From: Eledone cirrhosa
Taxonomy: Eukaryota
Reading direction: 5' to 3'
NCBI GenBank assembly: GCA_964016885.1
Contig: OZ024747.1
Coordinates: forward strand, 51,708,001-51,772,000
DNA length: 64,000 bases
The notes under the pieces were generated by a model. It had not been told where the DNA came from. It did no database searches and was given only the letters and a program-made list of their open reading frames with translations. Within the stretch, counting starts at the first letter, position 1. Each line of letters starts with the position of its first letter. Positions 14,247-61,917 of this stretch are shown here, piece after piece. A program made the translations under genes and the position numbers.

Positions 14247-14282
<36 letters not shown>

Positions 14283-15640: not shown

Positions 15641-15711
<71 letters not shown>

Positions 15712-15713
<2 letters not shown>

Positions 15714-17046: not shown

Positions 17047-17104
<58 letters not shown>

Positions 17105-17129
17105 GCTACAATGTACAGAGCGAAAAACA

Positions 17130-18849: not shown

Positions 18850-18852
<3 letters not shown>

Positions 18853-22470: not shown

Positions 22471-22870
22471 TAATATGGAAAACGAAGAATCAGTGATGCA
22501 TCGAAACACAATTTATTAACGTATTACAATTGTTTCACCGGTGAACAGCTCGTGGTGCGATCTATTTGTGGATCGAACCTGACTCTGGATTCGCAAGTTT
22601 CTCAGATACGTCTAGCGACTTCGAAGCAAATCCTCTGTCTGCTTCGAAGTGGCTAGGCGTATCTGAGGAACTTGCGAATCCAGAGTCAGGTTCGATCCAC
22701 AAATAGATCGCACCTCAAATTGTTCGCCGGAGAAACTAATACGTTAATAAATTGTGTTCGATGCATCACTGATTCAACGTTTTCCATATTATTATACTCT
22801 GCTCCGGAGGAGCATAGATTGCTCAACCGGCATACCGCCTATAGAAGCATCCAAGCAACCTTACCACGAA
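22471..22870 (+). mobile_element. Hairpin plus tail element with long-stem-II hammerheads (22519-22611 minus, 22657-22744 plus); family C
   Basis: 22471-22628 is inverted at 22640-22791; tail 22792-22870. The minus copy has CTGAGAA...GAAA-CAATTG-TA; the plus copy has CTGAGGA but a deleted stem III. Homolog at 52865-53281. Confidence 0.85.
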
Positions 22871-22877
22871 TATGTAT

Positions 22878-23017
<140 letters not shown>

Positions 23018-28911: not shown

Positions 28912-30863
28912 TTGTTACAGTAGTTGCTGTTACAGTAGTTGATGTTACAACAGTTGCTGTTACAGTAGTTGATGTTACAACAGTTGCTCTTACAGTAGCT
29001 GATGTTACAACAGTTGCTGTTACAATAGTTGATGTTACAGTAGTTGATGTTAAAATAGTTGCTGTTACAGTAGTTGATGTTACAGTAGTTGATGTTACAA
29101 TAGTTGCTGTTACAATAGTTGATGTTATAAGAGTTGCTGTTACAATAATTGATGTTACAGTAGTTGATGTTACAACACTTGCTGTTACAGTAGCTGATGT
29201 TACAACAGTTGCTGTTACAATAGTTGATGTTACAACAGTTGTTGTTACAATGGTTGATGTTACAGAAGTTGATGTTACAACAGTTGCTGTTACAGTAGTT
29301 GCTCTTACAGTAATGCTGTTACAATAGTTGCTGTTACAATAGTTGCTGTTACAGTAGTTGATGTTACAATAGTTGGTGTTACAGTAGTTGGTGTTACAAT
29401 AGTTGCTGTTACAATAGTTGCTATTACAGTAGTTTCTGTTACAGTAGATACTGTTACAGTAGTTGATGTTACACTAGTTGTTGTTACAGTAGTTGATGTT
29501 ACAGTAGTTGATGTTACAGTAATTGATGTTACAGTAGTTGCTGTTACATTAGTTGATGTTACAGTAGTTGCTGTTACAGTAGTTGATGTTACAGTAGTTG
29601 ATGTTACAGTAGTTGATGTTACAGTAGTTGCTGTTACAATAGTTGATGTTATAGTAGTTGATGTTACAGTAGTTGATGTTACAACAGTTGCTGTTACAGT
29701 AGTTTCTGTTACAATAGTTGATGTTACAGTAGTTGCTGTTACAATAGTTTCTGTTACAATAGTTGCTGTTACAACAGTTGCTGTTACATTAGTTGATGTT
29801 ACAATAGGTGATGTTACAGTGGTTGATGTTACAGTAGTTGCTGTTACAGTAGTTGATGTTACAGTAGTTGCTGTTACAACAGTTGCTGTTACAGTAGTTG
29901 ATGTTACAGTAGTTGATGTTACAGTAGTTGATGTTACAGTAGTTGATGTTACAGTAGTTGATGTTACAACAGTTGCTGTTGCAGTAGTTTCTGTTACAGT
30001 AGTTGTTGTGACAGTAGTTGATGTTACAGTAGTTGCTGTTACAACAGGTGCTGTTACAGTAGTTGATGTTACAATAGTTGATGTTACAGTAGTTGATGTT
30101 ACAGTAGTTGTTGTTGCAGTAGTTGATGTTACAATAGTTGCTGTTACAGTAGTTGCTGTTACAATAGTTGCTGTTACAGTTGTTGATGTTACAGTAGTTG
30201 CTGTTACAGTAGTTGATGTTACAATAGTTGCTGTTACAATAGTTGCTGTTACAATAGTTGATGTTACAGTAGTTGATGTTACAGTAGTTGCTGTTACAGT
30301 AGTTGCTGTTACAACAGTTGCTGTTACAGTAGTTGATTATACAGTAGTTGATGTTACAGTAGTTTCTGTTACAATAGTTAATGTTACAGTAGTTGATGTT
30401 ACAGTAGTTGATGTTACAGTAGTTTATGTTACAGTAGTTGATGTTACAACAGTTGCTGTTGCAGTAGTTTCTGTTACAGTAGTTGTTGTGACAGTAGTTG
30501 ATGTTACAATAATTGATGTTACAACAGTTGATGTTACACTAGTTGATGTTACAGTAGTTGATGTTACAGTAACTGATGTTAAAACAGTCGCTGTTACAAT
30601 AGTTGCTGTGACAGTAGTTGATGTTACAATAGTTGATGTTACAATAATTGATGTTACAACAGTTGATGTTACAATAGTTGATGTTACAGTAGTTGATGTT
30701 ACAACAGTCGCTGTTACAGTAGTTGCTGTGACAGTAGTTGATATTACAATAGTTGATGTTACAAAAATTGATGTTACAACAGTTGATGTTACAATAGTTG
30801 ATGTTACAGTAGTTGATGTTACAGTAGCTGATGTTAAAACAGTCGCTGTTACAATAGTTGCTG
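28912..30863. repeat. 15-bp minisatellite (GTTACAGTAGTTGAT / GTTACAATAGTTGCT)
   Basis: About 130 units by length. Confidence 0.95.
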
Positions 30864-31025
30864 CAGATATTGGTAGAAAGTCAGATACCATGCTTTGCAG
30901 TACAGAGTTATGGCCCTTCCGCCGATGTTAACTTTGCCTTTCATCCTTACGGGGTCAATAAAATAAAGTACCAGTAATACATTGAGGTATTTGCAGGCCT
31001 TGTGCCAAAAGTAGAAACAATTATT
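30864..31025 (+). mobile_element. Degenerate SINE between two satellites
   Basis: Family consensus match with an internal deletion. Confidence 0.8.
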
Positions 31026-31089
31026 ACAGTAGTAGTTGTTGCATGTTGATTACAGGACTTGTTGATGTTGCAGTAGTTGTTTTTGTTGA

Positions 31090-34000
31090 TGTTAAATCAG
31101 CTGTTGTTGTTATAGTTGTAGATGTTGTTGTTGTTATAGTTGTAGATGTCGTTGTTGTTGTTGATATAGTTGTAGATGTTGTTGTTGTTGTTGTTGTTAT
31201 AGTTGTAGTTGTTGTTGTTATAGTTGTAGATGTCGTTGTTGTTGTTATAGTTGTAGATGTTGTTGTTGTTGTTATAGTTGTAGATGTCGTTGTTGTTGTT
31301 ATAGTTGTAGTTGTTGTTGTTGTTGTTATAGTTATAGTTGTTGTTGTAGTTATAGTTATAGTTGTTGTTGTTGTTATAGTTGTATATGTTGTTATTGATG
31401 TTATAGTTGTAGTTGTTGTTGTTATAGTTGTAGTTGTGGTTGTTGTTGTTATAGTTGTAGATGTTGTTGTTGTTGTTATAGTTGTTGTTGTTGTTGTTAT
31501 AGTTGTAGATGTTGTTGTTGTTGTTATAGTTGTAGTTGTTGTTATAGTTGTAGTTGTTGTTGTTGTTGTACTTGTAGATGTTGTTGTTGTTGTTGTTATA
31601 GTTGTAGATGTTGTTGTTGATGTTATAGTTGTTGTTGTTGTTATAGTTGTAGTTGTTGTTGTTGTTATAGTTATAGATGTTGTTGTTGTTGTTATAGTTG
31701 TAGATGTTGTTATTGTTGTTGTTATAGTTGTAGTTGGTGTTGTTGTTATAGTTGTAGTTGTTGTTGTTATAGTTGTAGATGTTGTTGTTGTTATAGTTGT
31801 AGATGTTGTTGTTGTTATAGTAGTAGGTGCTGTTGTTGTTGTTATAGTTGTAGATGTTGTTGTTATAGTTGTAGATGTTGTTGTTGTTGTTATAGTTGTA
31901 GCTGTTGTTGTTGTTGTTATAGTTGTAGTTGTTGTTGTTGTTGTTGTTGTTATAGTTGTAGATGTTGTTGTTGTTATAGTGGTAGATGTTGTTGTTGTTA
32001 TAGTTGTAGGTGTTGTTGTTGTTGTTATAGTTGTAGTTGTTGTTGTTGTTGTTGTTATAGTTGTAGTTGTTGTTGTTGTTATAGTTGTAGTTGTTGTTGT
32101 TGTTGTTGTTATAGTTGTAGTTGTTGTCGTTGTTATAGTTGTAGATGTTGTTGTTGTTGTTATTGTTGTAGATGTTGTTGTTGGTATAGTTGTAGTTGTT
32201 GTTGTTGTTGTTATAGTTGTAGATGTTGTTGTTATAGTTGTAGATGTTGTTGTTGTTGTTGTTGTAGTTGTTGTTGTTGTTATAGTTGTAGATGTCGTTG
32301 TTATAGTTGTAGATGTTGTTGATGTTATAGTTGTAGATGTTGTTGTTGTTGTTATTGTTGTAGATGTTGTTGTTGTTGTTATAATTCTAGTTGTTGTTGT
32401 TGTTGTTATAGTTGTAGATGTTATTGTAGTTGTTGTTGTTGTTGTTGTTATAGTTGTAGATGTCGTTGTTGTTGTTATAGTTGTAGATGCTGTTGTTGTT
32501 ATAGTTGTAGTTGTTGTTATTATAGTTGTAGTTGTTGTTGTTGTTATAGTTGTAGATGTTGTTGTTGTTATAGTTGTAGATGTTGTTGTTGTTATAGTTG
32601 TAGATGTTGTTGTTGTTGTTATAGTTGTAGATGTTGTTGTTGTTGTTGTTATAGTTGTAAGTGTTGTTGTTGTTGTTATAGTTGTAGATGTTGTTGTTGT
32701 TATAGTTGTAGTTGTTGTTGTTGTTGTTATAGTTGGAGTTGCTGTTGTTGTTGTTATAGTTATAGTTGTTGTTGTTGTTGTGTTATAGTTGTAGATGTTG
32801 TTGTTGTTATAGTTGTTGTTGTTGTTGTTGTTGTTATAGTTGTAGATGTTGTTGTTGTTGTTATAGTTGTAGATGTTGTTGTTGTTGTTATAGTTGTAGT
32901 TGTTGTTGTTGTTGTTATAGTTGTAGATGTTGTTGTTGTTATAGTTGTAGTTGTTGTTGTTGTTGTTATAGTTGTAGATGTTGTTGTTGTTGTTATAGTT
33001 GTAGTTGTTGTTGTTGTGTTATAGTTGTAGATGTTGTTGTTGTTGTTATAGTTGTAGATGTTGTTGTTATAGTTGTAGATGTTGTTGTTGTTGTTATAGT
33101 TGTAGTTGTTGTTGTTGTTATAGTTGTAGATGGTGTTGTTGTTGTTATAGTTGTAGTTGTTGTTGTTATAGTTGTAGATGTTGTTGTTGTTGTTATAGTT
33201 GCAGATGTTGTTGTTGTTGTTATAGTTGTAGGTGTTGTTGTTGTTGTTATAGTTGTAGATGTTGTTGTTGTGTTATAGTTGTAGATGTTGTTGTTGTTGT
33301 TATAGTTGTAGATGTCGTTGTTGTTGTTATAGTTGTAGATGTTATTGTAGTTGTTGTTGTTGTGTTATAGTTGTAGATGTTGTTGTTGTTGTTATAGTTG
33401 TAGATGTTGTTGTTGTTGTTATATTTGTAGATGTTGTTGTTGATGTTATAGTTGTAGATGGTGTTGCTGTTGTTATAGTTGTAGATGTTGTTGTTGATGT
33501 TATAGTTGTAGATGTTGTTGTTGATGTTATAGTTGTAGATGTTGTTGTTGTTGTTGTTGTTGTTATAGTTGTAGATGTTGTTGTTGTTGTTATAGTTGTA
33601 GATGTTGTTGTTGTTGTTATAGTTGTAGTTGTTGTTGTTGTTATAGTTGTAGATGTTGTTGTTGTTGTTATAGTTGTAGATTTTGTTGTTGTTGTTATAG
33701 TTGTAGTTGTTGTTGTTGTTATAGTTGTAGATGTTGTTGTTGTTGTTATAGTTGTAGATGTTGTTGTTGTTGTTATAGTTGTAGTTGTTGTTGTTGTTAT
33801 AGTTGTAGATGTTGTTGTTGTTGTTATAGTTGTAGATTTTGTTGTTGTTGTTATAGTTGTAGTTGTTGTTGTTGTTATAGTTGTAGATGTTGTTGTTGTT
33901 GTTATAGTTGTAGATGTTGTTGTTGATGTTATAGTTGTAGTTGTTGTTGTTGTTATAGTTGTAGATGTTGTTGTTGTTGTTATAATTGTAGATGTTGTTG

Positions 34001-34235
34001 TTGTTGTTATAGTTGTAGATGTTGTTGTTGATGTTATAGTTGTAGATGTTGTTGTTGATGTTATAGTTGTAGATGTTGTTGTTGTTGTTGTTGTTATAGT
34101 TGTAGATGTTGTTGTTGTTGTTATAGTTGTAGATGTTGTTGTTGTTGTTATAGTTGTAGTTGTTGTTGTTGTTATAGTTGTAGATGTTGTTGTTGTTGTT
34201 ATAGTTGTAGATGTTGTTGTTGATGTTATAGTCGT
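31090..34235. repeat. Variable-length minisatellite ATAGTTGTAGAT(GTT)n
   Basis: Direct inspection. Confidence 0.95.
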
Positions 34236-34802
34236 TGTGTTGACGTTTTGGCTATTGTATTGTTTTAGACTTTCTTGTCATTTTTTGAAAAGTGCCAAAG
34301 CAAACGATTTATAATATTTGGTCTCATACAGTCTAAGTTGTCGTTCAGATATATGTATCACCTCATGTTTCTGTGTCCGTGTTCTCGCTTCTGTGTTCCC
34401 CAGCATAACTGCTGTTAAAAACCCTCGTCTGCCATAACATTCACTTAGTTATTTGTCAATTAGTAACAGATAAATGATGTTCTCTTGTCGCTTTACTTGA
34501 CTACAGCCCTTCAAAACAACTTAGTCTTCCTCAACATCCAAAACATAAACATACACATACCGACCATAATTAAATATGGAATGATACGCGATGAGGCCCC
34601 TCCACAGCCCCGGCGGTCAGAATGGAGAAGGCGTTTCCTCGGAGGATGGCAAGGGAGACGCGCTGGAAAAGCCACTCCAACTGGCGGGGCTCACACCTAT
34701 GTTGTAAAATGGCTGCAGTCTGATAACTAATATCAATAAACAGAAACACCTATATACCTGAATGCATGCCTATATAAACATATGATTCCCAAATGTGTAT
34801 AT

Positions 34803-37396: not shown

Positions 37397-37862
37397 ATAG
37401 AAAGAGGATTTCACTCCAAGCATAGCGTTATACAGATATGTATAGAAATTTCGTATTTCTAAAGAAATACGGTTTAGGAAGCCGTAGCTATGCAAACACC
37501 GGGGCTAACGCTCTCTGGTGGTGTCCAGCAGAAGCAAGGGGGACAACCGTCTATGCATTTCAGGCTTGACTGGCCTTCTTCAGGACGGTCCCTCCCACCG
37601 CTTGCGACTGCTGGACTAGAAGACAGGCGAGAATATATAGTTTTCTCGTCTGTGTAAATGGAGTGATTAATCTCATTTGCATATGAAGCTGCATAAGTTG
37701 GCTCAACTTATAATAGAATAGAAATAGGATTTCGCTTCAAGCATAGCTTTATACACATATGTATTGCTTCTGTTGGACATCACCAGAGGGCGTTAGGCCC
37801 GGTGGTTGCATAGCTACGGCTTCCTAAAACCGTGTTTCTTTAGAAATATGAAATTTCTATAC
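37397..37862 (-). mobile_element. Non-coding mini-element (retrozyme-like): 47-nt direct terminal repeats, hammerhead, inverted arm
   Basis: Direct repeat 37397-37443 / 37718-37764. Inverted repeat 37440-37536 / 37765-37862. Internal HHR; (TA)n and (CA)n flanks. Confidence 0.8.
37545..37590 (-). ncRNA. Minimal type I hammerhead ribozyme (intact core)
   Basis: GACCGTC-CTGAAGA-AGGC(CAGTCAA)GCCT-GAAA-TGCA-TA-GACGGTT. Stem III is palindromic (ATGCAT); predicted cleavage between 37552 and 37551. Confidence 0.92.
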
Positions 37863-38146
37863 ACACACACACATATATATACATATATATATAATGGCTG
37901 TTTTCAAATATTGAGAGAGTAAGGAAATATTGGGAAATTCTAACGTGAGATATAGTTAGTTAAATATTGATGAGATATAGTTAGTTAAGTATTAAACATA
38001 GTTTTTTTTTTAGTTAGAAAAATAAAATAAAATGAAACAAAAGAGAAGAAATGGGAATGGAAGAAAAGGTATGGAATTAGCTGGACGGTATATCACTAAA
38101 GATTTGCTGTGGAAAAGAATCCTTCCTCAGATGTGAGGCTTATATA

Positions 38147-38252: not shown

Positions 38253-38330
38253 TGTATGTGTGAGTATATATATATATATATATATATTATTCAAAATATT
38301 AACAAACGAATATATTCACATAATCAAAAT

Positions 38331-38403
38331 ATATGCTTTATTATATATATTTCGAAGGTACTGTGTTGTTGTTTTTTCAGTACGTCCTCGTCAGATAAAA
38401 TAT
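38331..38403 (-). ncRNA. PLE hammerhead, inverted-arm copy
   Basis: TTTAT-CTGACGA-GGACGTACTG...CAGTACCTTC-GAAA-TATATA-TA-ATAAA. Confidence 0.85.
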
Positions 38404-39620
38404 ATGATTTGATATATGACATACCTCTCTACGGTCTTGATATTTCAATTCCAGCACTGGCAGTGATTTATTTCATCAAATCTCAACATTTATATACCAC
38501 AAATAATAATATGATAAACTTAAAGAAGAAAAGGACGTGGAGCGAATTAGAGATATAAGAGAGGGTGTAAAGAAGAGGCGATGCAAGAAAATAATAACAA
38601 AAATAAAAAAATAAAAAAATACATATATAAATATTTAAATGAATAAATAGATGGGTGAATAGAGGAAGAAATATATATAAAAAAGAAGAAAATATTTATT
38701 GAATTAAAAGTTTATATAATATAATTTAACTCATTATAGATTTTAATTTCTGGTTTAGGTAATATATTTCATAAGTATTTTGTTACAACTTTTAAAAAAA
38801 TGTATATTTAAAGTATATTTAAATAATTATTAAACATGTATTAAAATATATATTAAAATACATGCATATATCCCCTTTATAAAATCGTTTCAAATCTTTA
38901 ATTATCATATAATTACAGGATTAAATTTTAGTTATATTTACTCACAAAAGTTTTATTTCGTTAATTTATATTTACTTCAGTAATTACAAATTATTACAAT
39001 TTCTTTTTAAAGAAATTCTTATATTATTCAACTATATAATTTATCTCAAAAATTAAAATAGCAAGCTATTCAAACAGAATAAAAATATTTACGAAGAATG
39101 TAAACAAAAGGAAGATAACTCATTCACTATATGTGAGCTTTAAACAATATATCTACTCTGAAATCTAGTGATATTTCTAAACCATAAATCAACAATTGTC
39201 AAGTTAAATATTGAACTGTCCTGATCAAAGCATAGGATACAGAGACTCATAATGAAATTATTATACTAGATAAAACATCAATACATTATTACTCCAGTAA
39301 GGCATAAATTATAAATATATTTATAAATTTATTAATTGTCAATATTTTTTCGAAACTTGTACAATGCTTGGAATGTTTTACCGGTTCTATGTTGGCAGCT
39401 GCTAAATAATTCATTCTTCTTGTTAAGTAAATTGTCATAATTTGTAATTATCAATAGATAATTGAATAATATTAAAACTCCAGGAAAATTTTCTTGTTGT
39501 GTGCTTTCAATCTATTGTAAAACTGTATTCATTGAGTAATCAATGAACCATATTAATCTTTGGTCATGTTTAGCTCCCTGGAGGTTCAGCGCCTCTTCTG
39601 CAATAGATTACTAATAAGTG

Positions 39621-41975
39621 ATGGAGTTCTTTAGGATTTCTTCATCTCTCAAAAATATACCTTTACCATCTAACGAAGAATATATGAAAAAACTTATTGC
39701 ACAAACCAACTCCTTCATAAGAAGACTGCGGTGGCGTGCTTTCCACTTTGAAAATAAAGAGAAAACGGATAAGAAAAACACCAACCACAATTTCGAACAT
39801 ATTTTTAAATCTAGAAAAAATCCTCCTTACAACAAACTCTTGGCTAATTTCGAAAACGAAATTATAAATATATTAAGGAATATAACATTTAAAATAAAAA
39901 CATATAGAGGCCAAGAATACCTTAGAGGTCTAAAGGAAAAAATTAATGACATACCGAAAGTAAACAAAATATTAGTGAAATCAGAGAAAACAAACAACCT
40001 ATATGGGATTGAAAGAACAAAATATAACGACTTAAATTTTAAAGAATTGAGAAAAAATTACAAAAAGGCCCCAAGTGAAGATTTATTGGATATTAATAAT
40101 GATGCATTTGATATTATCACTAATCTCGGAATAGAGCGGAAAACCAAACCCTTCATACCAAAGCAACCACGTATGAATTTTAAAGACCATAAAAGTAATT
40201 TTGAAGAAGTCTTACCTGTTAGACTTATTGTACCTTCGAAATCAGATCTTGGAATAATTAGTAAAAACATTATAGATAGGATTTTACCAACGCTTAAATT
40301 TAGGTCAAGGCTAAACCTATGGAAGGGCACTAATGAAGTCATAGATTGGTTTAATAATATCGAAAATAAAAAAAACCATAAGTTCATTCAAATGGACATA
40401 GCGAGTTATTATTCCTCAATAACTCCTAACCAACTAAATAAGGCGCTATCATATGCATATAAGTACACGGATCTATCTAGTGATGAGATAAATATTATTT
40501 TAACTGCAAGGCGAACATTGATAGAATTTAATAATCATCTTTGGACTAGATCCGATAGGCAGTGGACTAGATCCGATAGGTAGAAGAACTTTGACATTAC
40601 TATGGGCTCGTCTGATTCGGCGCAAGTTACCGATCTTGTAGGAATTTTCATCCTTAACATGATAAATAGAAAACTGCCGGAGATTACTGGTGGTTTATAT
40701 AGAGACGACATATTATTTATTGTAGAAAAACATAATAATAGCGAATTAAATAGAGTAAAGAAAGTAATTATAGAATTTTTTAAAAATTATGACATGAAAT
40801 TAGAAGTAGAAAATAACAATAAAATAGTTAATTTTTTGGACGTAACTTTTAATTTGAACTCAGGCCTTTATTACCCTTTCCATAAACTCAATTAGAACTT
40901 AAATTATGTTAGTTTTTATTCTAATCATCCTAAAAGTGTTAAGAATGCAATAGTCAACAGTGTACAACAACGATTATCCAGACTACCTGCTAATAGATCC
41001 ATATTTAATAGTAAAGCCGTATATTATAATGATGCTTTACGTAAAGCTGGTTATAAAAATAATATTGAGTATATAGAAAAAATACTGAAAATAGTATTAA
41101 GTATAATCACAGTATTCATATAATAATAATAATAATAATAAAATTGACTATAAAAACAACAACTTGAGGAATAAATCGAGGAAAAAAATAAGAACTAGAT
41201 CTATAATTTGGTCTGCTCCGCCAGCATCTTTAGCTATTAAAACACCTTTAGCACACTTATTTGTTAAAGTCTTGGATAAATGCTTCCCTAGATCACATAA
41301 ATATTACTCTATCTTCAATAGATAACACAGTTAAACTCTCTTATTCAACAACTATGTATATTGCTCAAAATATAGCAAAAAATAAATAGTAAAAATCTTA
41401 ATTTGAACCAACATATAAATAGCGATAATAACAATAATAATAATACATTATTTAATGGGAATAATAATAATAATAACTTAAATACGAATAATAGTAGAAC
41501 ACCTTTAGATAATAATAATAATAATAATAATAATATGAATAGTTTAGGATATAGAAATAACATCGAGAAGAAATGTAACTGTAGAAGGAAGTCAGAATGT
41601 CCCTTACAAAATAACTGCCTTGACAAGAATCTAATATATAAATGCACCATTAAGACAAATAATAATATATATAACTACATTGGTGCCACTTCATCTCGGT
41701 TTAAGGTTCGTTGGTACAATCATAAATATTTCTTTTCGAAACCAGACAATAAATCTTCAACTTCACTCTGACAATTAATATGGTCTTTGAAGGACAAGAA
41801 TATTAAATACTTCACACGGTTAAAGTTTGCCAATTCCTATCAAAACGCATCCATTTCGCCAAATTGCAATCTTTGCAATCTCGAAACTCTATAGATAATT
41901 ACAAATTATGACAATTTAATTAACAAGAAGAATGAATTATTTAGCAGCTGCCAACATAGAACCGGTAAAACATTT
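39621..41975 (+). pseudogene. PLE reverse transcriptase / GIY-YIG endonuclease ORF, disrupted
   Basis: RT motifs FIQMDIASYYSSI, FDITMGSSDSAQVTDLVG, GLYRDD, NFLDVTFNL. Endonuclease CNCRRKSECPLQNNCL..LIY...YIGATSSRFKVRWYNHK...CNLC...LINKKNELFSSCQH. Stops at 40581, 40893 and 41769, plus frameshifts. Confidence 0.93.
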
Positions 41976-43095
41976 CAAGCATTGTACAAGTTTCGAAAGA
42001 ATATTGACAATTAATAATTTTATAAATATATTTATAATTTTTGCCTTACTGGAGTAATAATGTATTGATGTTTTATCTAGTATAATAATTTCATTATGAG
42101 TCTCTGTATCCTACGTTTTGATCAGGACAGTTCAATATTTAACTTGACAATTGTTGATTTATGGTTTAGAAATATCACTAGATTTCAGAGTAGATATATT
42201 GTTTAAAGCTCACATAAATCTTCGTAAATATTTTTATTCTGTTTGAATAGCTTGCTATTTTAATTTTTGTCATAAATTATATAGTTGAATAATATAAGAA
42301 TTTTTTTAAAAGGAAACTGTAATAATTTGTAATTACTGAAGTAAATATAAATTAACGAAATAAAACTTTTGAGAGTAAATATAACTAAAATTTAATCCAG
42401 TAATTATATGATAATTAAAGATTTGAAACGATTTTATAAAGTGGATATATGCATGTGTTTTAATATATATTTTAATACATGTCTAATAATTATTTAAATA
42501 TGCTTTAACATAAATTGTTTTAAAGTTGTAACAAAATACTTATGGAATATATTACCTAAGCCATAAATTAAAATCTATAACGAGTTAAATTAAATTCTAT
42601 AAACTTTTAATTCAATAAATATGTGACTGCTTCTGAAAGGAAATGTATATTTATTAATTTTGATATATTATATAAGTTTAATTAGCTTAACCATAACCAA
42701 ATACTAGAGATATTCAATGGTTTATGGTAATTGATTGGTTGCCTCAATTGACCTATTATTTGAAAATAACGTTTTTTTTTGTACCTATCCCCTCCATAAT
42801 TTCTTTTGTCGTTATTTCTTCTTTCTTCTTTTTCTTCTTTTTTATATATATTTCTTCCTCTATTCACCCATCTATTTATTCATTTAAATTCTTTTTTATT
42901 TTTTTTTTTTTTTCTTGCATCTCCTCTTCTTTACACCCTCTCTTATATCTCTTATTCGCTCCACGTCCTTTTCTTCTTTAAGTTTATCATATTATTATTT
43001 GTGGTATATAAATGTTGAGATTTTATGAAATAAATCACTGCCAATACTGGAATTGAAATATCAAGACCGTAGAGATATGTCATATATCAAATCAT

Positions 43096-43165
43096 ATATT
43101 TTATCTGACGAGGACGAACTGAAAAAAAAACACAGTACCTTCGAAATATATATAATAAAGCATAT
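43096..43165 (+). ncRNA. PLE hammerhead, sense copy in the 3' region
   Basis: CTGACGA at 43105, GAAA at 43143, palindromic stem III ATATATAT; predicted cleavage after 43154. Confidence 0.85.
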
Positions 43166-43467
43166 ATTTTGATTATGTGAATATCTTCATTTGTTAATAT
43201 TTTGAATAATATTAAAACTCCAGGAAAATTTTTCTTTTGAGTTCTTTTAATCTATTGTAAAACTGTATTCATTGAGTAATCAATGAACCATATTAACCTT
43301 TCGGTATATATATATATATATATACATACATATATATATAGGTACATATTTACACGCATACACACATACACATTTACATGCACATACACGCTATAAACCA
43401 CACAAACATGTATATGTATGTATGTATGTATATATATATACATGTACATACAAAATTATATATATAT

Positions 43468-43790
43468 GTGCAATGCCAATGTGCGTGAACCACCAAGCAT
43501 AGACGTGTTGAGAAAGAAACTGGGTATAAGAGGGATAAGTTGTGGTGTGCAGGAGAGAAGGCTGAGATGGTATGGACATGTGATGCGCGTGGAGGATGAC
43601 CGCTGGGTAAAGAAGTGCCAAGAAATCCCAGTAGAGGTAGACCACGAAAAACATGGGCGGAGGGGGTGTGAGAAAACTTCAGATCGCTGAAACACACCGA
43701 GGAGATGACGAAGGACCGTGACAAGTGCGAGAGATGCTGTGCTGAATAGGACCCGTCCAACTCTTGCAAGCAGGGAAAAACGGACGTAAA

Positions 43791-43823: not shown

Positions 43824-43841
43824 TATATATATATATATATA

Positions 43842-44837
43842 TAAATATAAATATATTACACAAAGAGAAGTGTGTTACACAGTGAGATGTGTGTAAAGAA
43901 TTATTACAAGTGAGTTTTACCGTTACTGTATAGAGAATAATATCTACAGGTTTAGCAAAATAAATAGAAAAAAACTAAGTCAGAGTCAAATCTCTGAAGT
44001 AGAGTTTTGAATTACCAACCTTATAACTATAAGTTTGCTGATACGAATCTAGTTCGTTTCACCACAGAAATGTGCAGTACAACAGCCCACAGGATCCTTA
44101 GTCAGCAAATGTGGATGCTGTTCACGACACATCTAACCTCATGGATAGAGAGAAAGCTAATATATACCCTGCCCAGAGTAGGGCGAAATCACGTGTTATC
44201 TGCATCAAATAACGGCTCTCATGGATTGGGGAAAATGCTAGAGAGAGCAGCCCAACCGTTCGCATTTATTAGCTCAACAATTTGGAGCTCGTTAAGTATA
44301 CGGGGATCGGAATTAAGAGTATTCCGCAGTTCACAGTAATAATAATAATATTAGCTCAAAGAGGAATAGAGAATTTTCTTCTAAGCTCAAATACAAATAT
44401 AAATATATTACACAAAGAGAAGTGTGTTACTGAGGATCCTGTGGGCTGTTGTACTGCAGATTTATGTGGTGAAACGAACTAGATTCGTATCAGCAAACTT
44501 ATAGTTATAAGGTTGGTAATTTAAAACTCTACTTCAGAGATTTGATTCTGACTTAGTTTTTTTCTATTTAATTGCTAAACCTGTAGATATTGTTCTCTAT
44601 ACAGTAACGATAAAACTCACTTGTAATAATTATTTACACACATCTCACTGTGTAACACACTTCTCTTTGTGTAATATATTTATATTTGTATTTGAGCTGA
44701 GAAGAAAATTCTCTATTCCTCTTTGAGCTAACATTTGTTAATATCGTATGTTTACTCCAAATACTTGTTGAGTGCTTTATATCAGTTATAAAAATATTTG
44801 CTTGTTGTATCCCAACAATTTAAATAGAACTTTTGCA
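43842..44837 (+). mobile_element. Compound hairpin plus tail element with hammerheads (44034-44109 minus; 44430-44498 plus, lacking the stem I 5' strand)
   Basis: 43842-44100 is inverted at 44430-44687, and 44351-44430 is inverted at 44653-44730. TTTGCTGA-CTAAGGA...GAAA-CGAA(CTAGA)TTCG-TA-TCAGCAAA. Tail 44732-44830 is homologous to the reverse complement of 18853-18957. Confidence 0.82.
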
Positions 44838-45091
44838 TATATATATATATATCTATATATCTGTGTGTATGTATTTTTTCTTGCTAGTCAGTTCTTTCGT
44901 TGCTACAGATCACGCGGCTGAATTAGCGGTCGCTATCTTCAATTTGGAAAGCCCCTTAAACTGTATTTTATTACTCTTGTCGAGTGCTTGGCTGCACTGC
45001 TGAAGGTATTCGTTGGCTTAGCTGCTGCTCGAACTTCGAATATGCTGTACTTTCATTTATATATATATATATATATAATATAATATAATAT

Positions 45092-45275
45092 AATTGTTTC
45101 TACTTTTGGCACAAGGCCAGCAATTACCAGTACATTACTGGTACTTTATTTTATCGACCCCGTAAGGATGAAAGGCAAAGTTAACCTCGGCGGGATTTGA
45201 ACTCAGATCATAAAGAGACGTAACTCTATGCTTAAAAGCATGGTGTCCGACTCTCTACCGATACTGCCAATCCAC
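45092..45275 (-). mobile_element. SINE, full length
   Basis: Family consensus match. Confidence 0.9.
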
Positions 45276-45573: not shown

Positions 45574-46097
45574 TGACGTCTCACAAAAGTATCAGTTGAA
45601 GGTTTAACAATATCGCATTAGCTTTTATAAAGTCGTTTTACAGTCTTTGGTTTTACAGAAGAAAAAAAAATTGGTACTATTTGAAATTAATTTACCCTCC
45701 ATCTTTTATCCATATACGACAGACAGTCCGTACTAACGAAGCAACACTTCAGAAGCAATGTTATTCGGTATATGGCTGAGTTTCAGATGACTTCCTTTGG
45801 AGCTGAAAAACATCATACTGACTATGGTTATTTCACAACACTTAAAATCCAAGGCCAATGCTACCATTTAATCGGCAGTTTACTCCCCCAGCTTAAGAAG
45901 GAAGTTTTATGATTGTTTTTTTTTTCATCTCTCTCACACACACACACATTACGGTCTCACCTCATACCAGACAACACATCCAATACAGTCGTTTTCTCTT
46001 TTATCCGTCTTCTCTTCACTGTTCTCCCGGGCGAAGCCGGGTACCTCAACTAGTATATATATATATATTCATATATCCACTTCTTATTCCATGGGTT

Positions 46098-46281
46098 AGC
46101 TGTATCGGTAGAGGGTTGGACGCCATACTTTCCAGCATAGAGTTATGTCCCTTTACAGTCTGAGTTTAAATCCCGCCGAGGTTAACTTTACCTTTCATCA
46201 TTAAGAGGTCGATAAAATAAAGTACCTGTAATGCACTGGGATAATTGCTGGCCTTGTGCCAAAAAGTAGAAACAATTATTA
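46098..46281 (+). mobile_element. SINE
   Basis: Family consensus match. Confidence 0.88.
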
Positions 46282-46398: not shown

Positions 46399-49150
46399 TG
46401 ATGATGGTGCTGGTGGCGGTAGTGATGGTTGTAATGGTGGTGTTGATGATGAGGATGATGGCGGTGGTGGCGACTGTAGTAATGGTTGTGATGGTCGTGA
46501 TTATGGTGGTGCTGGTGGTGGTGATGATGAAGATGATGATGTTGACGAGGGTGGTAGTGAAGGTGGTGATAGCACCGTTGGATGCGCTGCTGCTGCTGGA
46601 GATGGAGTTGCTGCTGCTGCTGCTGATGTTGATGATGATGATGGAGGTAATAATTATTTACGATGGTGATGCTGAGGATTGCGGTGGTATTGATGGTGGT
46701 GCTGGTGTTAATGATAACGACGACGATGATGAATTCGATGATGATGGTGGTAATGATGGTGTCTATGGTGGTATTGATGGTGGCGATGGTGGTATTGATG
46801 GTGGTGCTGGTGTTAATGATAACGACGACGATGATGAATTCGATGATGATGGTGGTAATGATGGTGTCGATGGTGGTATTGATGGTGGCGATGGTGGTAT
46901 TGAAAGTGGCGATGGTGATGGTGACGATGGTGGTAATGATGGTGGTAATGACGGTGACGATGGTGGTATTTATGGTGACGATGCTGGTAATCATGGTGGC
47001 GATGGCGGTATTGATGGTGGCGATGGTGGTATTTATGGTGACGATGGTGGTAATGATGGTGGCGATGGTGGTATTTATGGTGACGATGCTGGTAATCATG
47101 GTGGCGATGGCGGTATTGATGGTGGCGATGGTGGTATTTATGGTGACGATGGTGGTTAATGATGGTGGCGATGGTGGTATTTATGGTGACGATGCTGGTA
47201 ATCATGGTGGCGATGGCGGTATTGATGGTGGCGATGGTGGCATTTATGGTGACGATGGTGGTAATGATGGTGGCGATGGTGGTATTGATGGGGGCGATGG
47301 TGGTATTTATGGTGGCGATGGCGGTATTGATGGTGGCGATGGTGGTATTTATGGTGACGATAGTGGTAATGATGGTGGCGATGGAGGTAAATATGGTGAC
47401 GATGGTGGTAATGATGGTGGCGATGGTTGTATTGATGTTGATGATGGTGGTAATGATGGTGGCGATGGCGGTAATGATGGTGCCGATGGTGGTATTTATG
47501 GTGACGATGGTGATATTTATGGTGACGATGGTGGTATTTATGGTGACGATGGTGGTATTGATGGTGACGATGGTGGTATTGATGGTGACGATGGTGGTAT
47601 TTATGGTGACGATGGTGGGATTTATGGTGATGATGGTGGTATGGATGGTGACGATGGTGGTATTGATGGTGGCGATGGTGGTATTTATGGTGACGATGGT
47701 GATATTTATGGTGACGATGGTGGTATTTATGGTGACAATGGTGGTATTGATGGTGGCGATGGTGGTATTGATGGTGGTGATGGTGGTATTTATGGTGACG
47801 ATGGTGGTAATGATGGTGGCGATGGTGGAATTTATGGTGATGATGGTGGTATTTATGGTGATGATGGTGGTATTTATGGTGACGATGGTGGTATTGATGG
47901 TGGCGATGGTGGTATTGATGGTGGTGATGGTGGTATTTATGGTGACGATGGTGGTAATGATGGTGGCGATGGTGGTATATATGGTGGCGATGGTGGTATT
48001 TATGGTGGCGATGGTGGTATTGATGGTGGCGATGGTGGTATTGATGGTGGCGATGGTGGTATATATGGTGATGATGGTGTTATTGATGGTGACGATGGTG
48101 GTATTTATGGTGATGATGGTGGTATTTATGGTGATGATGGTGGTATTTATGGTGACGATGGTAGTATTGATGGTGGCGAAGGTGATAATGATGGTGGCGA
48201 TGGTGGTATTGATGGTGACGATGGTGGTATTTATGGTGACGATGGTGGTATTGATCGTGGCGAAGGTGATAATGATGGTGGCGATGGTGGTATTGATGGT
48301 GACGATGGTGGTATTTATGGTGGCGATGGTGGTATTGATGGTGACGATGGTGGTAATGATGGTGGCGATGGTGGTAATGATGGTGACGATGGTGGTATAT
48401 ATGTTGATGGTGGTGGTATTGATGGTGGCGATGGTGGTATTTATTGTGACGATGGTGGTAATGATGGTGGCGATGGTGGTATTGATGGTGACGATGGTGG
48501 CGATGGTGGTATTAATGGTGACGATGGTGGTATTTATGGTGACGATGGTGGTATTGATGGTGGCGATGGTGGTATTTATGGTGGTGATGGGGGTATTTAT
48601 GGTGACGATGGTGGCGATGTTGGTATTGATGGTGACGATGGTGGTATTTATGGTGGCGATGGTGGTATTGATGGTGGCGATGGTGGTAGATATGGTGACG
48701 ATGGTGGTATATATGGTGACGATGGTGGTAATAATGGTGGCGATGGTGGTATTGATGGTGACGATGGTGGTATTTATGGTGACGATGGTGGTATTGATGG
48801 TGATGATGGTGGTATTGATGGTGATGATGGTGGTATTGATGGTGATGATGGTGGTATTGATGGTGGCGATGGTGGTATTTATGGTGATGATGGTGGTATT
48901 GATGGTGATGATGGTGGTATTGATGGTGATGATGGTGGTATTTATGGTGGCGATGGTGGTATTGATGTTGGCGATGGTGGTATTGATGGTGATGATGGTG
49001 GTATATATGGTGATGATGGTGGTATTTATGGTGACGATGGTGGTAATGATGGTGGCGATGGTGGTAATGATGGTGACGATGGTGGTATATATGGTGATGA
49101 TGGTGGTATTGATGGTGGCGATGGTGGTATATATGGTGATGATGGTGATG
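46300..49150. repeat. GAT/GGT low-complexity tract grading into a 21-bp minisatellite (GATGGTGGTATTTATGGTGAC)
   Basis: Direct inspection; the regular 21-bp period starts at about 46900. Confidence 0.93.
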
Positions 49151-51265: not shown

Positions 51266-52489
51266 GCGAGGGCGAGCTGAACAATTCATAGAGTGACTCT
51301 GAAGGAGTGGTGCTAGAGTTGTGAAATCTTGCGTGTATTAATTTCAAATCTTCTTACCAGGTAAACGGATATTTCACTGTTAAATGAAGACTTCAAAAGT
51401 AACTAGTAGCGACATCACATGAAAAAGGACAACATTTGGCATCGTGGGTTTACCAAGTATCTACAGAAAAGGGTTTGGCTCACAAGAACATCCATGCTGA
51501 CATGGTTGCTACATTAGAGAATGACGTTCCAGTTTTATCAACAGTGCAAAAGAGGACAGCTGAATTGAGGAGGGGGAAGGGAGATCTTGAAGATGAACCA
51601 AGGCCTGGACGATCTGCAACTGTCACCATCAAAGCAAACATTGATCGTGCTCACCACATGGTGATGAGTGACAGGCGATTGACTTTTAATCAAATAGACA
51701 ATGCTATTATAATATCCCGTAAGAGACTTGAGAATATTCTGCACAATGAACTTAGCATAATGAACGTTTCTGTTTGGAGGTTGCCACGTTACTGACAACT
51801 GATCAAATGCGCACCAGGCAGATCACATCACAGGAAAATCTGACATTTTTTGAGACAGATCTAGCTGGTTTCCTTGAAAGTTTCTTAAATCAGGAAGAGT
51901 ATTAGGTTCATCACTTAGAGCCGTAGACAGAGGGGAAATCCATACAGTAGAAACACCTTCCACATCTGCTCCAAACAAAGCAAGGTCGTTTCATCTGCAG
52001 GAGAGGTTATGGCTTCAGCATTTTGCGATTCTGTTTATTGTCTACCTTCAAAAGAGCCACCCCGTCAATGGAGAGTACTATGCAAGTTGCTGAGGCAGTT
52101 ATGAAAGACTATCAAAGAATAAACACCCATGACAACTGAAGAAAGGGGTCCGGACAACGCTCCAGCACACCAGCCCTTGGTTTCAATGGATGCTGTGCAT
52201 AACTGCGGCTTTAAACTTGTTGGTCAAGCTCCTTATCTTCCTGATTCAACCCATCTGACAATCATATGTTCCCCGGCATGAATGAGCAGTTGGCTGGGAC
52301 CCAGTCTCTCAGCGTTGGTGACTTTTTTACCAACATGAGGAATGCTTCTTCACCAATCGGATCCAGGCACTGCAACACCGACGGAAGAAGGCTGTGTACC
52401 GCAATAGGGAACTATGTTGGAAAATAAACCTCATTTAGTCACATTCAATGGGAGTATCTTAGATATTGACCAATCCAGCCGACCCTGTA
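51266..52489 (+). mobile_element. Decayed mariner (Tc1/mariner) transposon
   Basis: HTH region LEDEPRPGR...DRRLT...ILHNEL, WVPR-like WRLPR, then SAGEVMASAF, DNAPAH and PYLPD.TPSD.HMFP. About 1.2 kb with many stops and frameshifts. Confidence 0.88.
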
Positions 52490-52864: not shown

Positions 52865-53279
52865 ATATCACAGAAAAAAAGAGAATCAGTGTTGCGGCGA
52901 ATGGAATTTATTGGACATATTACAATCGTTTCTCTGGCGACCAGCTCGAGGCACGATCGATGTGATGATCGAACCTGACTCTGAAAATCGCAAGGTCCTC
53001 AGATAGGTCTTGATTCTACGAAGCAGATTTTCCTATATGAAATTCTGCTTCGTAGAATGAAGACGTATCTGAGGACCTTGCGAATTTGGGAGTCAGATTC
53101 GATCATCACATCGATCGTGCCTCGAGCTGGTCGCCAGAGAAACGATTGTAATATGTCCAATAAATTCCATTCGTCGCAACACTGATTCTCTTTTTTTCTG
53201 TGATATCATACTCTGCTCTATGAGAGCATCGAGTGCTTATACGGCCTATCGCATACAGACGCTTTAAGCATCCAACACC

Positions 53280-53281
<2 letters not shown>
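52865..53281 (+). mobile_element. Hairpin plus tail element, family C, with hammerheads at 52914-53009 (-) and 53062-53157 (+)
   Basis: 52865-53030 is inverted at 53039-53206; tail 53207-53281. GACGTAT-CTGAGGA-[63-nt stem II region]-GAAA-CGATTG-TA-ATATGTC. Confidence 0.88.
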
Positions 53282-53332
<51 letters not shown>

Positions 53333-53334: not shown

Positions 53335-53614
53335 TAGAAGGGGTATTTAATTTGTTGTAAGTCCGACAAATATAAATGTTTACTGGAGTAAATACTATCC
53401 AGTGAATTTCCAACCGATAAGGTATGATTTTCATGGGTATGTCTCTATTTATAAAACAAACTTTGTATGTTATCTGATGAAAGTGTACCAATGTGTCTTG
53501 GTACACTTATATATAATAGAATATTATATATGAAATATATATAATAGAATATAATGAAATATATATAATAGAATAAATATGCTTTTATAAATATAGTTTC
53601 CATTTATTTAATAT

Positions 53615-53621
<7 letters not shown>
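53333..53621. mobile_element. Rearranged relative of the 18850-19260 element with a disrupted hammerhead
   Basis: TAT-CTGATGA-AAGTGTACCAA..TTGGTACACTT, then a TA-rich insertion before GAAATATATATA. The end AAATATG.TTTTATAAATATAGTTTCCATTT matches 19214-19244. Confidence 0.65.
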
Positions 53622-58530: not shown

Positions 58531-58825
58531 TGTGTGTCTGTGTATTAGTATGTTTCAGCGTGTGTGTATATGTACGTCTGTGTATGGGTATATGTGAGTT
58601 CAGGATGTGTGTGGTGTGTACGTTTATGTATGTGTGTATATGTGTTTCAGCGTGTGTGTGCGTGTATACGTATGTGTATGTATGTATGTGTGTATACGTC
58701 TGTGTATGTGTTAATGTGTGTTTCAGCTTGTGTATGTGTACGCTTGTAGTATGTATTTATGTACTTTGCTTTCTGTGCATATCTCTATATGTGTGTCAGT
58801 ATTTTGAATGTGTATGCAAGAATAC

Positions 58826-61625
58826 ATGTGTATAAGTATATATGTGTACAAGTATATATATGTGTATAAGTATATATGTGTACAAGTATATATGTGTACA
58901 AGTATCTGTATGTACAAGTATATATGTGTACAAGTATCTGTGTGTACAAGTATCTATGTGTACAAGTATATATGCGTATAAGTATATATATGTACCAGTA
59001 TATATGTGTATAAGTATATATATGTACAAGTATATATGTGTACAAGTATATATGGGTACAAGTATCTATGTGTACATGTATATATGTGTACACGTATATA
59101 TGTGTAAAAGTATATATATGTACTAGTATATATGTGTACAATTATATACGTGTACAAGTATATATGTGTACAAGTATATATGTGTACAAGTATCTGTGTG
59201 TACAAGTATCTGTGTGTACAAGTATATATGTGTACAAGTATATATGTGTACAAGTATCTGTGTACAAATATATATGTGTACAAGTATATATGTGTACAAG
59301 TATCTGTGTGTACAAGTATATATACGTACAAGTATATATGTGTACAAGTATATATGTGTATAAGTATATATGTGTACAAGTATATATGTGTATAAGTATA
59401 TATGTGTACAAGTATATATATGTGTACAAGTATCTGTATATACAAGTATATATGTGTACAGATATATATGTGTACAAGTATTTGTGTGTACAAGTATATA
59501 TGTGTACAAGTATATATGTGTACAAGTATCTGTGTACAAGTATATATGTGTACAAGTATATATGTGTACAAGTATCTGTGTATACAAGTATATATGTGTA
59601 CAAGTATATATGTGTACAAGTATCTGTGTGTACAAGTATATATACGTACAAGTATATATGTGTACAAGTATATATGTGTATAAGTATATATGTGTACAAG
59701 TCTATATGTGTATAAGTATATATGTGTACAAGTATATATGTGTACAAGTATCTGTATATACAAGTATAGATGTGTACAGGTATATATGTGTACAAGTATT
59801 TGTGTGTACAAGTATATATGTGTACAAGTATATATGTGTACAAGTATCTGTGTACAAGTATATATGTGTACAAGTATATATGTGTACAAGTATCTGTGGA
59901 AAACAAGTATATATGTGTACAAGTATATATGTGTACAAGTATATGTATACAAATATATGTGTGTAAAAATATATGTGCACAAGTATCTGTGTGTACAAGT
60001 ATGTATTGTACAAATATATATGTGTACAAGTATCTGTGTGTATAAATATATATGTGTACAAGTATATATGTATATAAGTATATATGTGTACAAGTATCTG
60101 TGTACAAGTATATATGTGTACAAGTATCTATGTGTACAAGTATCTATGTGTACCAGTATATATGTGTATAAGTATATATCTGTACAAGTATATCTGTGTA
60201 CAAATATATATGTGTACAAGTATATATGTGTACAAGTATCTGTGTGTACAAATATATATCTGTACAATTATATATGTGTACAAGTATATGTGTGTACAAG
60301 TATATATGCGTACAAGTATATATGTGTACAAGTATATATGTGTACAAGTATATATGTGTACAAGTATCTGTGTATACAAGTATATATGTGTACAAGTATA
60401 TATGTGTACAAATATATATGTGTACAAGTTTCTGTGTATACAAGTATATATGTGTACAAGTATATATGTGTACAAGTTTCTGTGTATACAAGTATATATG
60501 TGTACAAGTATATATGTGTACAAGTTTCTGTGTGTACAAGTATATATGTGTACAACTATATATGTGTACAAGTATATATGTGTACAAGTATCGGTGTACA
60601 AGTATATATGTGTACAACTATATATGTGTACAAGTATATATGTGTACAAGTATCGGTGTACAAGTATATATGTGTACAAGTATCTGTGTACAAATATATG
60701 TGTACAAGTATATATGTGTACAACTATATATGTGTACAAGTATATATGTGTACAAGTATATATGTGTACAAGGATATATGTGTATAAGTATATGTGTGTA
60801 CAAGTATATATGTGTACACGTATATATGTGTACAAGTATCTGTGTACAAGTATATATGTGTACAAGTATATATGTGTACAACTATATATGTGTACAAGTA
60901 TATATGTGTACAACTATATATGTGTACAAGTATCGGTGTACAAGTATCTGTGTACAAGTATATTTGTGTACAAGTATATATGTGTACAACTATATATGTG
61001 TACATGTATATATGTGTACAAATATCTGTATTCAAGTATATATATGTACAAGTATATAAGTGGACAAGGATATATGTGTACAAGTATATATGTGTACATG
61101 TATATATGTGTACAAGTATATATGTGTACAAGTATATATGTGTACATGTATATATGTGTACAAGTATATATGTGTACAAGTATCTGTGTACAAGTATATA
61201 TGTATACAAGTATATATGTGTACAAGTATCAAATGTGTACAACTATATATGTGTATATGTATATATGTGTACAAGTATATATGTGTACAAGTATATATAT
61301 GCAAGTATATATGTGTACAAATATCTGTGTACAACTATATATGTGTACCAGTATATATGTGTACAACTATATATGTGTACAAGTATATATGTGTACAAGT
61401 ATCTGTGTACAAGTATCTGTGTGTACAAGTATCTGTGTGTGTACAAGTATATATGTGTACATGTATCTGTGTGTGTACAAGTATATGTGTACAAGTATCT
61501 GTGTGTGTACAAGTATCTGTGTACAAGTATATATGTGTACAAGTATCTGTGTACAAGTATATATGTGTACAAGTATCTGTGTGTGTACAAATATATGTGT
61601 GTGTACAAGTATCTGTGTGTACAAG
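58826..61625. repeat. 16-bp minisatellite (GTACAAGTATATATGT)
   Basis: Direct inspection; 14-18 bp variants occur. Confidence 0.95.
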
Positions 61626-61917
61626 CAAGTGCCTTGTTTCAGGGGGGTACCAGGGGACAATTGCCCCCCCCCCCTCTTCACAAACTTGTTCAAACGTCTA
61701 TGTTTATTTGTTGTTTAGTTAATATAATAAATTCGTTGTAAGCTTATTTTTTTTATATCTGAACTTCATTTGAATACATAAAATTTAATTAGCGTAACAT
61801 TTTACTTATGCGATAGGGTCCAGGAAAGGCACCAGAAGCAATACTAACATGCTTCTTTAAGAATCAAAAAATGTTGGTTTGTCCCCCCTCACACTTTTAG
61901 GGCAAACGAGGCCCCTG
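61626..61917. mobile_element. Putative hAT-type MITE
   Basis: TIRs CAAGTGCCTTGTTT / (reverse complement) CAGGGGCCTCGTTT, 11/14 identical. 8-bp flanks TGTACAAG / TGTGCAAG. Confidence 0.6.

Follow-up and report, generated by a model that had tools for sequence, protein, structure and literature searches.

The Hydra clade of Penelope-like elements (PLEs), as presented by Craig et al. (PMC8557442), shares a reverse transcriptase (RT) followed by a C-terminal GIY-YIG endonuclease, the motifs RW[KR], FDxTMG, GLYRDD, CxCx5C and CxxC plus CxH without CCHH, a hammerhead near the 3' end and (TA)n as the target. The same paper draws a 5'-inverted truncated copy as typical of PLEs, notes one in the Hydra member Penelope-13_HM (nt 1-966), and names two unresolved matters, how the tandem and inverted structures originate and the microsatellite bias. 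Here we describe an element in a stretch of 64,000 nucleotides from Eledone cirrhosa (assembly GCA_964016885.1, contig OZ024747.1, positions 51,708,001 to 51,772,000 of the forward strand), referred to below as the window, with coordinates counted from its first letter. Judged by its motifs, 38285-43304 is almost certainly a dead copy of a Penelope-like retrotransposon that belongs to an as yet unnamed family of the Hydra clade and has inserted into a (TA)n microsatellite. It is a further Hydra-clade family in a PLE layout already drawn in the literature. Its value is that of a mechanism record, consisting of fixed coordinates (two 3' ends, B and A, and a direct copy that stops at B) and a candidate RNA signal of about 28 nt that lends itself to mutation in an in vitro assay already available. 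A Hydra copy that originated by priming at two sites is our best explanation of the whole, and we regard it as fairly probable.

The target tracts and the coding region are as follows.

38267..38288, no strand: left (TA)n target tract; its overlap with the element end is a microhomology of about 4 nt
38285-43304: dead PLE copy, between (TA)n tracts on both flanks
39621-42014, plus strand: frame of RT and C-terminal GIY-YIG endonuclease; ATG at 39621, stop at 42012-42014
39621..41100, plus strand: N-terminal domain, RT and thumb, with SLKNIP, RWR, EKT and FDITMG; stops at 40581 and 40893
41100..41573, plus strand: linker, broken in frame three times, that contains the blocks IIWSAPP and KLSYS and a stretch rich in Asn
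41574..42014, plus strand: endonuclease of GIY-YIG type (CxxC, CxH) together with its CxCx5C linker; interrupted by stops at 41769 and 41892
43305..43340, no strand: right (TA)n target tract

Read through with X at the lesions, the frame spans approximately 785 codons. It is interrupted by the four in-frame stops listed and by at least three frame breaks, at 41075-41125 (a net shift from one or two events), near 41323 and near 41384; this copy can encode no active enzyme. An initial annotation of the sequence had reported an RT with YRDD and a Cys-rich GIY-YIG open reading frame (ORF) between TA tracts, and had likened its motifs to the Hydra group of PLEs. The observations were confirmed, and the likeness is supported. 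The motifs SLKNIP, KSEKT, GLYRDD (YRDD at 40698-40709), CNC-x5-CPL-xxx-CL, YIG, CNLC and CQH are all located in the frame, TA tracts are present at both outer ends, and the Hydra assignment finds support, motif by motif, in section 11 and supplementary Fig. S7 of Craig et al. 2021 (PMC8557442).

The RT part matches 238 proteins at an E value of ≤1e-5 (among 8000 candidates), the best of them 42% identical (E 1.5e-111), and the unbroken first 320 residues match 3118 cluster representatives at E ≤0.001. Intact relatives are collinear with the element in tblastn across 39621-41990, and 41574..42014 matches the endonuclease profile of the relatives with a probability of 99.7 (E 1.4e-26). Of 115 alignment columns with a conservation of 90% or more across 122 full-length relatives, the read-through keeps 99, a value near the low end for these relatives themselves (96 and up). 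The AlphaFold model of one intact relative, P0002, has a pLDDT of 90. Its top match in Foldseek is TERT (E 1e-8), and TERT also comes first in VIA (Z 16.2, rmsd 4.3, 302 aligned), tied with the RT of a diversity-generating retroelement (DGR) and yeast TERT; these fold matches concern the RT, with the endonuclease part barely represented among them. Pfam found neither RT nor GIY-YIG on the three pieces of the window, and at gathering level neither on seven relatives; its GIY-YIG model was matched by 5 of 62 relatives scanned. A profile of 99 rows searched against PDB sequences gave a single, non-significant hit, and the Atlas returned eukaryotic clusters only, unnamed or DUF8422.

The domain order is that of the clade, a single ORF with RT and then a C-terminal endonuclease, though the ORF is broken here. 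None of the Naiad/Chlamys features (N-terminal endonuclease, CxC domain, IFD) was found, and the protein starts with M-x7-SLKNIP like its relatives; with its C-terminal endonuclease and its hammerheads, the element was rejected as a member of Naiad/Chlamys. Membership of Penelope/Poseidon, Neptune or Nematis was also rejected, as their CCHH, DKG and CX2-5CxxC linker (the last in Neptune and Nematis) are missing. The Cys linker reads CNCRRKSEC and is followed by CNLC and CQH, the CxxC and CxH that in the clade lie around a conserved E and N, CCHH is absent, and a single Cys lies between IY and YIG. The clade is described with an RWK motif and with no conservation of GxKF/Y, and the element agrees with this; RW[KR], present in 99 of 122 full-length relatives, is RWR in this element, and the DNA of Hydra-1_Crog likewise encodes RWR. 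The spacing between RT3 and RT4, judged by eye, equals that of the Hydra rows except for a duplication of 7 aa, which corresponds to a 21-nt tandem duplication near 40542-40583. The RT4(B) block is divergent, with FDITMGSSDSAQVTDLVG here compared with FDVTMGSYDGAEVCELVG in Hydra and GxxMGSxxxP as the canonical form; the canonical form occurs in none of the 122 relatives and not in this element. In a FastTree tree of 42 rows, built with no outgroup and no named PLE families, the copy joins P0001, P0002, P0003, P0121 and P0122 with a support of 100.

The element also departs from the clade in an Asn-rich linker and in a hammerhead with a long stem II and a U-A stem III. Asn accounts for 32 of the 63 codons in 41385-41573, and the Asn-rich linker measures 76 aa, compared with a median of 28 in relatives (n = 86). 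PLE tails are given as 30-40 bp (PMC8557442), compared with 92 nt in this element. Two departures weigh against the assignment. The Hydra hallmark DKT is EKT here, with the T present and D changed to E by one base in a copy that has at least seven other lesions, and [AS]DK[TS] is carried by 114 of the 122 relatives. Hydra families are also generally shorter than 3 kb (PMC8557442), whereas the unit here is 3.74 kb with a 3' untranslated region (UTR) of about 1.2 kb. Hydra-1_Obim of Octopus bimaculoides has the clade motifs and the target preference in common with the element. It was rejected as the same family, as protein blocks, N terminus, RT4 block, hammerhead and UTR differ by eye, and the stem-bulge motif described below was, unlike here, not seen by eye.

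Outside the coding frame, the element consists of two inverted arms, a short direct repeat and a tail on one side.

38285..39458, minus strand: left arm, an inverted, 5'-truncated copy (1174 nt) with the last ~42 codons, 3' UTR, hammerhead and the end at site B
38337..38399, minus strand: predicted type I hammerhead of the left arm, with CUGACGA, long stem II, GAAA, a palindromic UAUAUA stem III and a UA cut after 38342 (z -2.9)
39446..39463, no strand: inversion junction, with a 7-bp stem, a 4-nt loop and 3 filler bases at 39459-39461
39462..39561, plus strand: 5' copy of a 100-nt direct repeat (short pseudo-long terminal repeat [pLTR]/tail), including the stem-bulge motif at 39477-39505
41888..43212, plus strand: right arm (1325 nt), with the ORF end, an AT-rich 3' UTR of ~1.2 kb and the hammerhead, up to site B
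43100..43159, plus strand: predicted type I hammerhead of the right arm, cut after 43154, with one stem II pair fewer than the left copy
43213..43304, plus strand: one-sided tail of 92 nt, from site B to site A
43217..43245, plus strand: stem-bulge-stem-loop motif ACTC-hairpin-NN-GAGT(G/T)CT, 4 nt past site B

The initial annotation pictured these parts as a 5-kb stem-loop. An inverted repeat is indeed present, but its arms flank a 2.4-kb spacer and would pair in single-stranded RNA or DNA only. The arms do reach into the last ORF codons, with an overlap of approximately 42 codons. Because of this short overlap they add little to a reconstruction of the protein, and the idea that they would help rebuild the active sequence has little to offer. 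A global alignment of the two arms, with 1116 aligned positions, shows 41 substitutions (3.7%; Jukes-Cantor 0.038), which are evenly distributed along the arms (chi-square p = 0.65). The two indels reported earlier, of about 190 nt on the right and about 35 nt on the left, both exist, at 208 nt (right only, 42622-42829) and 30 nt (left only, 39100-39129), but six more were found (left only; 12, 9, 3, 2, 1 and 1 nt). Since a relative carries the 208-nt piece at 16374-16500 (74%), the left arm has lost it. A signature of A-to-I editing between the arms was not seen (A/G 6, G/A 3; T/C 6, C/T 3). Assemblies are troubled by PLE inverted structures (PMC8557442), and the palindrome could for that reason be an artefact of long-read assembly; with 41 substitutions and eight internal indels of up to 208 nt separating the arms, and an arm end at the same site as in a separate relative, we consider this extremely improbable.

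The arms can be used to date the insertion, as was suggested earlier, and their divergence is homogeneous; the date is an upper bound if they were copied from two template units. Half of the arm divergence is 0.019 per site. At a rate of 0.09 per 25 million years (PMC13282606), and if an octopus host and this rate hold, the insertion is about 5 million years old (roughly 4-7), or younger if the template units already differed. Four stops compare with 2.0 expected from half of the arm divergence (P = 0.14), a count compatible with decay following insertion, and the element has decayed neutrally since then. That difference in stops leaves room for differing histories, and (TA)n-targeted elements cluster, with 202 TA tracts in the window; two independent insertions, or a later rearrangement, might have set a truncated copy head-to-head with a full copy. 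We regard such an origin as very improbable, as the inner junction is without a TA tract and the same asymmetric layout recurs across unrelated families in the window.

The initial annotation had missed a direct repeat, the existence of two fixed 3' ends and the stem-bulge motif. Positions 39462-39561 correspond to 43202-43301 in the same orientation, with 93 of 100 positions identical, and because of this repeat the core is a unit of 3740 nt plus approximately 100 nt of terminal redundancy. The excess divergence of the direct repeat over the arms is not significant (Fisher p = 0.11). The element has two distinct 3' ends, B at 43212, 58 nt past the hammerhead cut, and A at 43304, 150 nt past it. 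The inverted arm adjoins its TA tract at B. The first base of the direct copy lies 11 nt upstream of the position that corresponds to B in the preceding unit.

A canonical hammerhead motif, as listed for the clade, is present as a predicted ribozyme. The earlier claim of one hammerhead in each arm withstood a shuffle control, with descriptor matches in both: the cores lie at 38394 (minus strand) and 43105 (plus strand), and 200 shuffled versions of the element had 0.01 on average, never two. Rfam detected no hammerhead in either arm; among the best 150 of 297 matches in its scan of the whole window, most were microsatellite matches to microRNA models. As a monomer the left hammerhead folds with only -0.7 kcal/mol, as would be expected because a short palindromic stem III requires a dimer (PMC4209133). 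The two hammerheads are oppositely oriented, and dimerization within one transcript would therefore be impossible.

The closest comparison in the window is provided by a non-coding relative, which adjoins a remnant of another lineage.

15707-17047, no strand: non-coding relative with ends B and A as in the main element, a different inversion point and two hammerheads
17126-17386, minus strand: decayed piece of a GIY-YIG endonuclease from a different Hydra lineage (E 1.4e-8 against the profile), adjoining the A end of the 15707 element

Within the window, (TA)n is the target of both the main element and this nearest relative, which are 85-90% identical at the hammerhead. The relative contains a SINE-like (short interspersed nuclear element) insert flanked by an 18-bp duplication, and its inverted copy of approximately 880 nt exceeds its direct copy of approximately 230 nt. 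Arm identities are 96.4 and 94.9% within elements, compared with 85.5-89.8% between them; a second comparison gave 93.5 and 95.9%, compared with 77-79%. As the arms group by element rather than left with left, and the inversion points differ, the arms arise with each insertion. This bears on the idea that the whole palindrome is an inherited transposing unit descended from an inverted master, its ends kept by descent and its arms homogenized by gene conversion. A read-through transcript of such a master could in principle be copied whole, and two elements of one family (22473 and 52865) have a palindrome centre in common. However, the main element and its 86% relative differ in inversion point with the same ends, the arms group within elements, and divergence is even along the arms without conversion patches; we judge descent from an inverted master to be improbable.

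The main element had also been named the best candidate in the window for the enzyme that mobilized the hairpin elements. This is well supported for 15707-17047 only, which the element's family likely mobilized. It is plausible for the 65-70% relatives, which the family perhaps mobilized as well, and indirect for the rest, and this copy itself is dead. The remnant at 17126-17386, by eye closer to the endonuclease of Hydra-1_Obim, shows that other lineages were present.

The layout of the main element is repeated elsewhere in the window. Of 58 rows of inverted pairs, 15 rows representing 13 loci were kept, and the 43 rows dropped were nearly all pairs of a dispersed SINE-like repeat. At seven of the 13 loci one end directly adjoins a TA tract, for which the chance is 1.1% per end; at the other end, six of the seven have an extension of 64-101 nt to a TA tract, and the seventh has one of 78 nt to a decayed tract. 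The remaining six loci do not fit the layout. In three loci the copy from site A stops just past B, by 11 nt in the main element, 4 nt in 53335-53620 and about 17 nt in 44732-44836.

Priming on both strands of a target has been described in other systems. In the work reported in PMC11167929, purified protein of a Poseidon PLE nicked both strands of AT-rich DNA and extended each of them; synthesis began at two internal sites in the RNA, one on either side of the genomic tail, and uncleaved RNA was used. The element studied there, PAc of Anolis, is comparable to ours in its AT-rich target, in the cutting and extension of both strands, in the two starts that bracket the tail and in a stem-loop at the start region. 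It belongs to a different clade, and its hammerhead and starts lie in the 5' end of the ORF, whereas ours lie upstream of the ATG, with ends 92 nt apart. For L1, both twin and dual priming are described (PMC2837659), and there too a head-to-head inversion results when both target strands act as primers; the L1 start sites are poly(A) and internal positions that vary, whereas both sites are fixed here and the cDNAs can overlap in sequence. Pen2a_Av and related Penelope elements of Adineta vaga (PMC3846280) have a direct repeat and an adjacent inverted copy, a one-sided tail, a junction palindrome and Asn-rich linker inserts like our element, and differ in pLTRs of about 200 bp, 31-bp tails and discernible target duplications, compared with an inverted copy of 1.2 kb, a 100-nt repeat and (TA)n here.

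From the anatomy, the fixed ends and the position of the motif, all read directly from the DNA, we infer the nicking, the priming, the template length and the function of the motif. An origin by priming of both nicked target strands, at A and B, has in our estimate a slightly better than even chance of being correct. The element protein would bind a transcript longer than one unit, close to the stem-bulge motif that follows the hammerhead, and would nick both (TA)n strands with its GIY-YIG domain. One nicked strand would prime the RT at site A (43304), and the whole 3740-nt unit would be copied up to site B of the upstream unit. The other strand would prime at site B, where a brief TA-like run precedes the motif by 3-7 nt, and from there 1.3 kb of the upstream unit would be copied. 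The cDNA from A would halt where the B primer sits, and the two cDNA ends would be joined via a few bases of snap-back and microhomology, leaving head-to-head arms and a tail on one side only. Short elements with a hammerhead in both cDNAs would derive from two template units or two RNAs (dual priming).

Several observations weigh against this origin. Five two-armed elements (15707, 18851, 22473, 52865 and 12045) have an A copy that continues well beyond B, an extent that simple twin priming on one unit would not allow; two units or two RNAs are needed. The elements at 22473 and 52865 share one palindrome centre, as fold-back or inheritance predicts. The stem at the main junction is weak evidence, as the background chance of such a stem is 6.4%.

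These points lead to the main rival, in which the inverted arm arose by self-priming or fold-back (of an antisense RNA or the first cDNA, with a template jump), site B reflects resolution of a hairpin by the endonuclease, and the motif is a DNA recognition site. Arkhipova et al. 2013 interpret junction palindromes as self-priming (PMC3846280), and Craig et al. ascribe the tail to resolution by the endonuclease (PMC8557442). Short near-perfect palindromes at 12045, 22473, 52865 and 63672, two of them with a shared centre, and the 7-bp stem at the junction of the main element agree with such a process. The arm of the main element, however, mirrors the far 3' end and not the sequence adjacent to the junction; at 15707-17047 the inverted part, being longer than the direct part, is not its fold-back; direct copies that stop at B are left unexplained; and the tail boundaries of Poseidon are RT start sites in vitro (PMC11167929). 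We therefore consider self-priming with endonuclease resolution unlikely, though it is the main rival to priming at two sites.

The motif past site B may be the signal that sets the second start. ACTC-hairpin-(N1-2)-GAGTGCT, or a variant differing by one base, starts 3-7 nt past B in six of the seven two-armed elements inspected; the element at 37439 lacks the motif and has a tail of 39 nt. The exact pattern occurs five times, compared with 0.11 by chance, always at the start of a tail. In the paper on the clade (PMC8557442), GCTC-hairpin-NN-GAGCACT is visible by eye in four of the six published novel Hydra consensi, and in that of Hydra-1_Ajap the motif occupies the very first bases; the comparison covered these six novel consensi and left out the 21 Hydra sequences of Repbase. 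These observations raise the possibility, which we put forward tentatively and with some doubt, that Hydra PLEs share a cis-acting RNA, RCUC-hairpin-NN-GAGYRCU, near the hammerhead that sets the second of two fixed RT starts; that priming from both nicked (TA)n strands at these two starts explains the inverted arms and the one-sided tail of PLEs; and that the many small TA-flanked hammerhead palindromes of this genome are non-autonomous passengers of Hydra elements. With the same reservation, the motif would sit just downstream of the hammerhead and would be kept over distant phyla, with the outer pair swapped between A-U and G-C and the inner stems free to change.

The evidence for the motif has its own weaknesses. 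The exact pattern was derived from the same elements in which it was counted, so that the count is post hoc. A relaxed pattern occurs nine times, compared with a mean of 3.4 (maximum, 10), with seven of the nine at tail starts, and it failed to pick up the copy at 43217. Pairing in the lower stem amounts to 87.5%, with no compensatory change within the window, and the folds have z values weaker than -1.9 in five of eight copies (-0.54, -0.96, +0.48, -0.75, then -1.92 to -3.53). The words "stem-loop," "hairpin" and "palindrom" are absent from the main text of Craig et al. Neither such a motif nor twin priming in PLEs turned up as the subject of any paper in our literature search, which did not extend to older papers or to the supplementary files of a retrozyme preprint (10.64898/2026.07.22.740005); a prior mention is possible. 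If the motif is real, it would also help in searches for non-coding derivatives of Hydra elements, which annotation based on proteins overlooks.

Other TA-flanked sequences were observed in the window. A second family, about 65% related and also with a hammerhead and a tail, is represented at 18851-19259, 53335-53620 and 44732-44836; at 53335-53620 the inversion covers the tail only, and the B copies at 19070 and 53399 begin at the same TATCCAG site. The region 43839-44836 is a TA-flanked composite: its inverted arms, of 264 nt, consist of unrelated sequence, and it also contains an internal duplication and the tail of the second family; it is possibly host or other-element sequence carried in trans. 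The elements at 22473-22880 and 52865-53283 are palindromic, with a hammerhead-like core that has a stem II of about 63 nt, a common palindrome centre and the same tail motif. Sequences of other families that are associated with TA, either palindromes or single copies, carry whole or half hammerhead motifs at 11981-12187, 63672-64000, 2806-3295, 37400-37863 and 14282-14420, and the tail motif is present at 12045. The AT-rich, TA-flanked region 3560-4985 carries a truncated hammerhead about 71% identical to that of the main family and internal duplications, and is probably an older 3' UTR copy.

A scan for bacterial promoters gave matches at chance level, with models that are not suited to a eukaryotic host. 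An abundant SINE-like repeat of about 190 nt, which we presume to be octopus-like, is often found in AT-rich tracts (15386-15575, 15917-16109, 45090-45274, 46092-46279 and many others). The fragment at 43500-43790 (plus strand) is presumably related to the 3' end of an RTE-type long interspersed nuclear element (LINE), and that at 51403-51795 (plus strand) we take to resemble the N terminus of a mariner transposase. A tRNA-Phe (GAA) gene was found at 792-864 on the minus strand by both ARAGORN and Rfam (57.5 bits). Long minisatellite arrays with strong strand skew occupy 28913-34242, 46683-49147 and 58785-61718, with units of 15, 24/27 and 21 nt and a degenerate TG/TA array.

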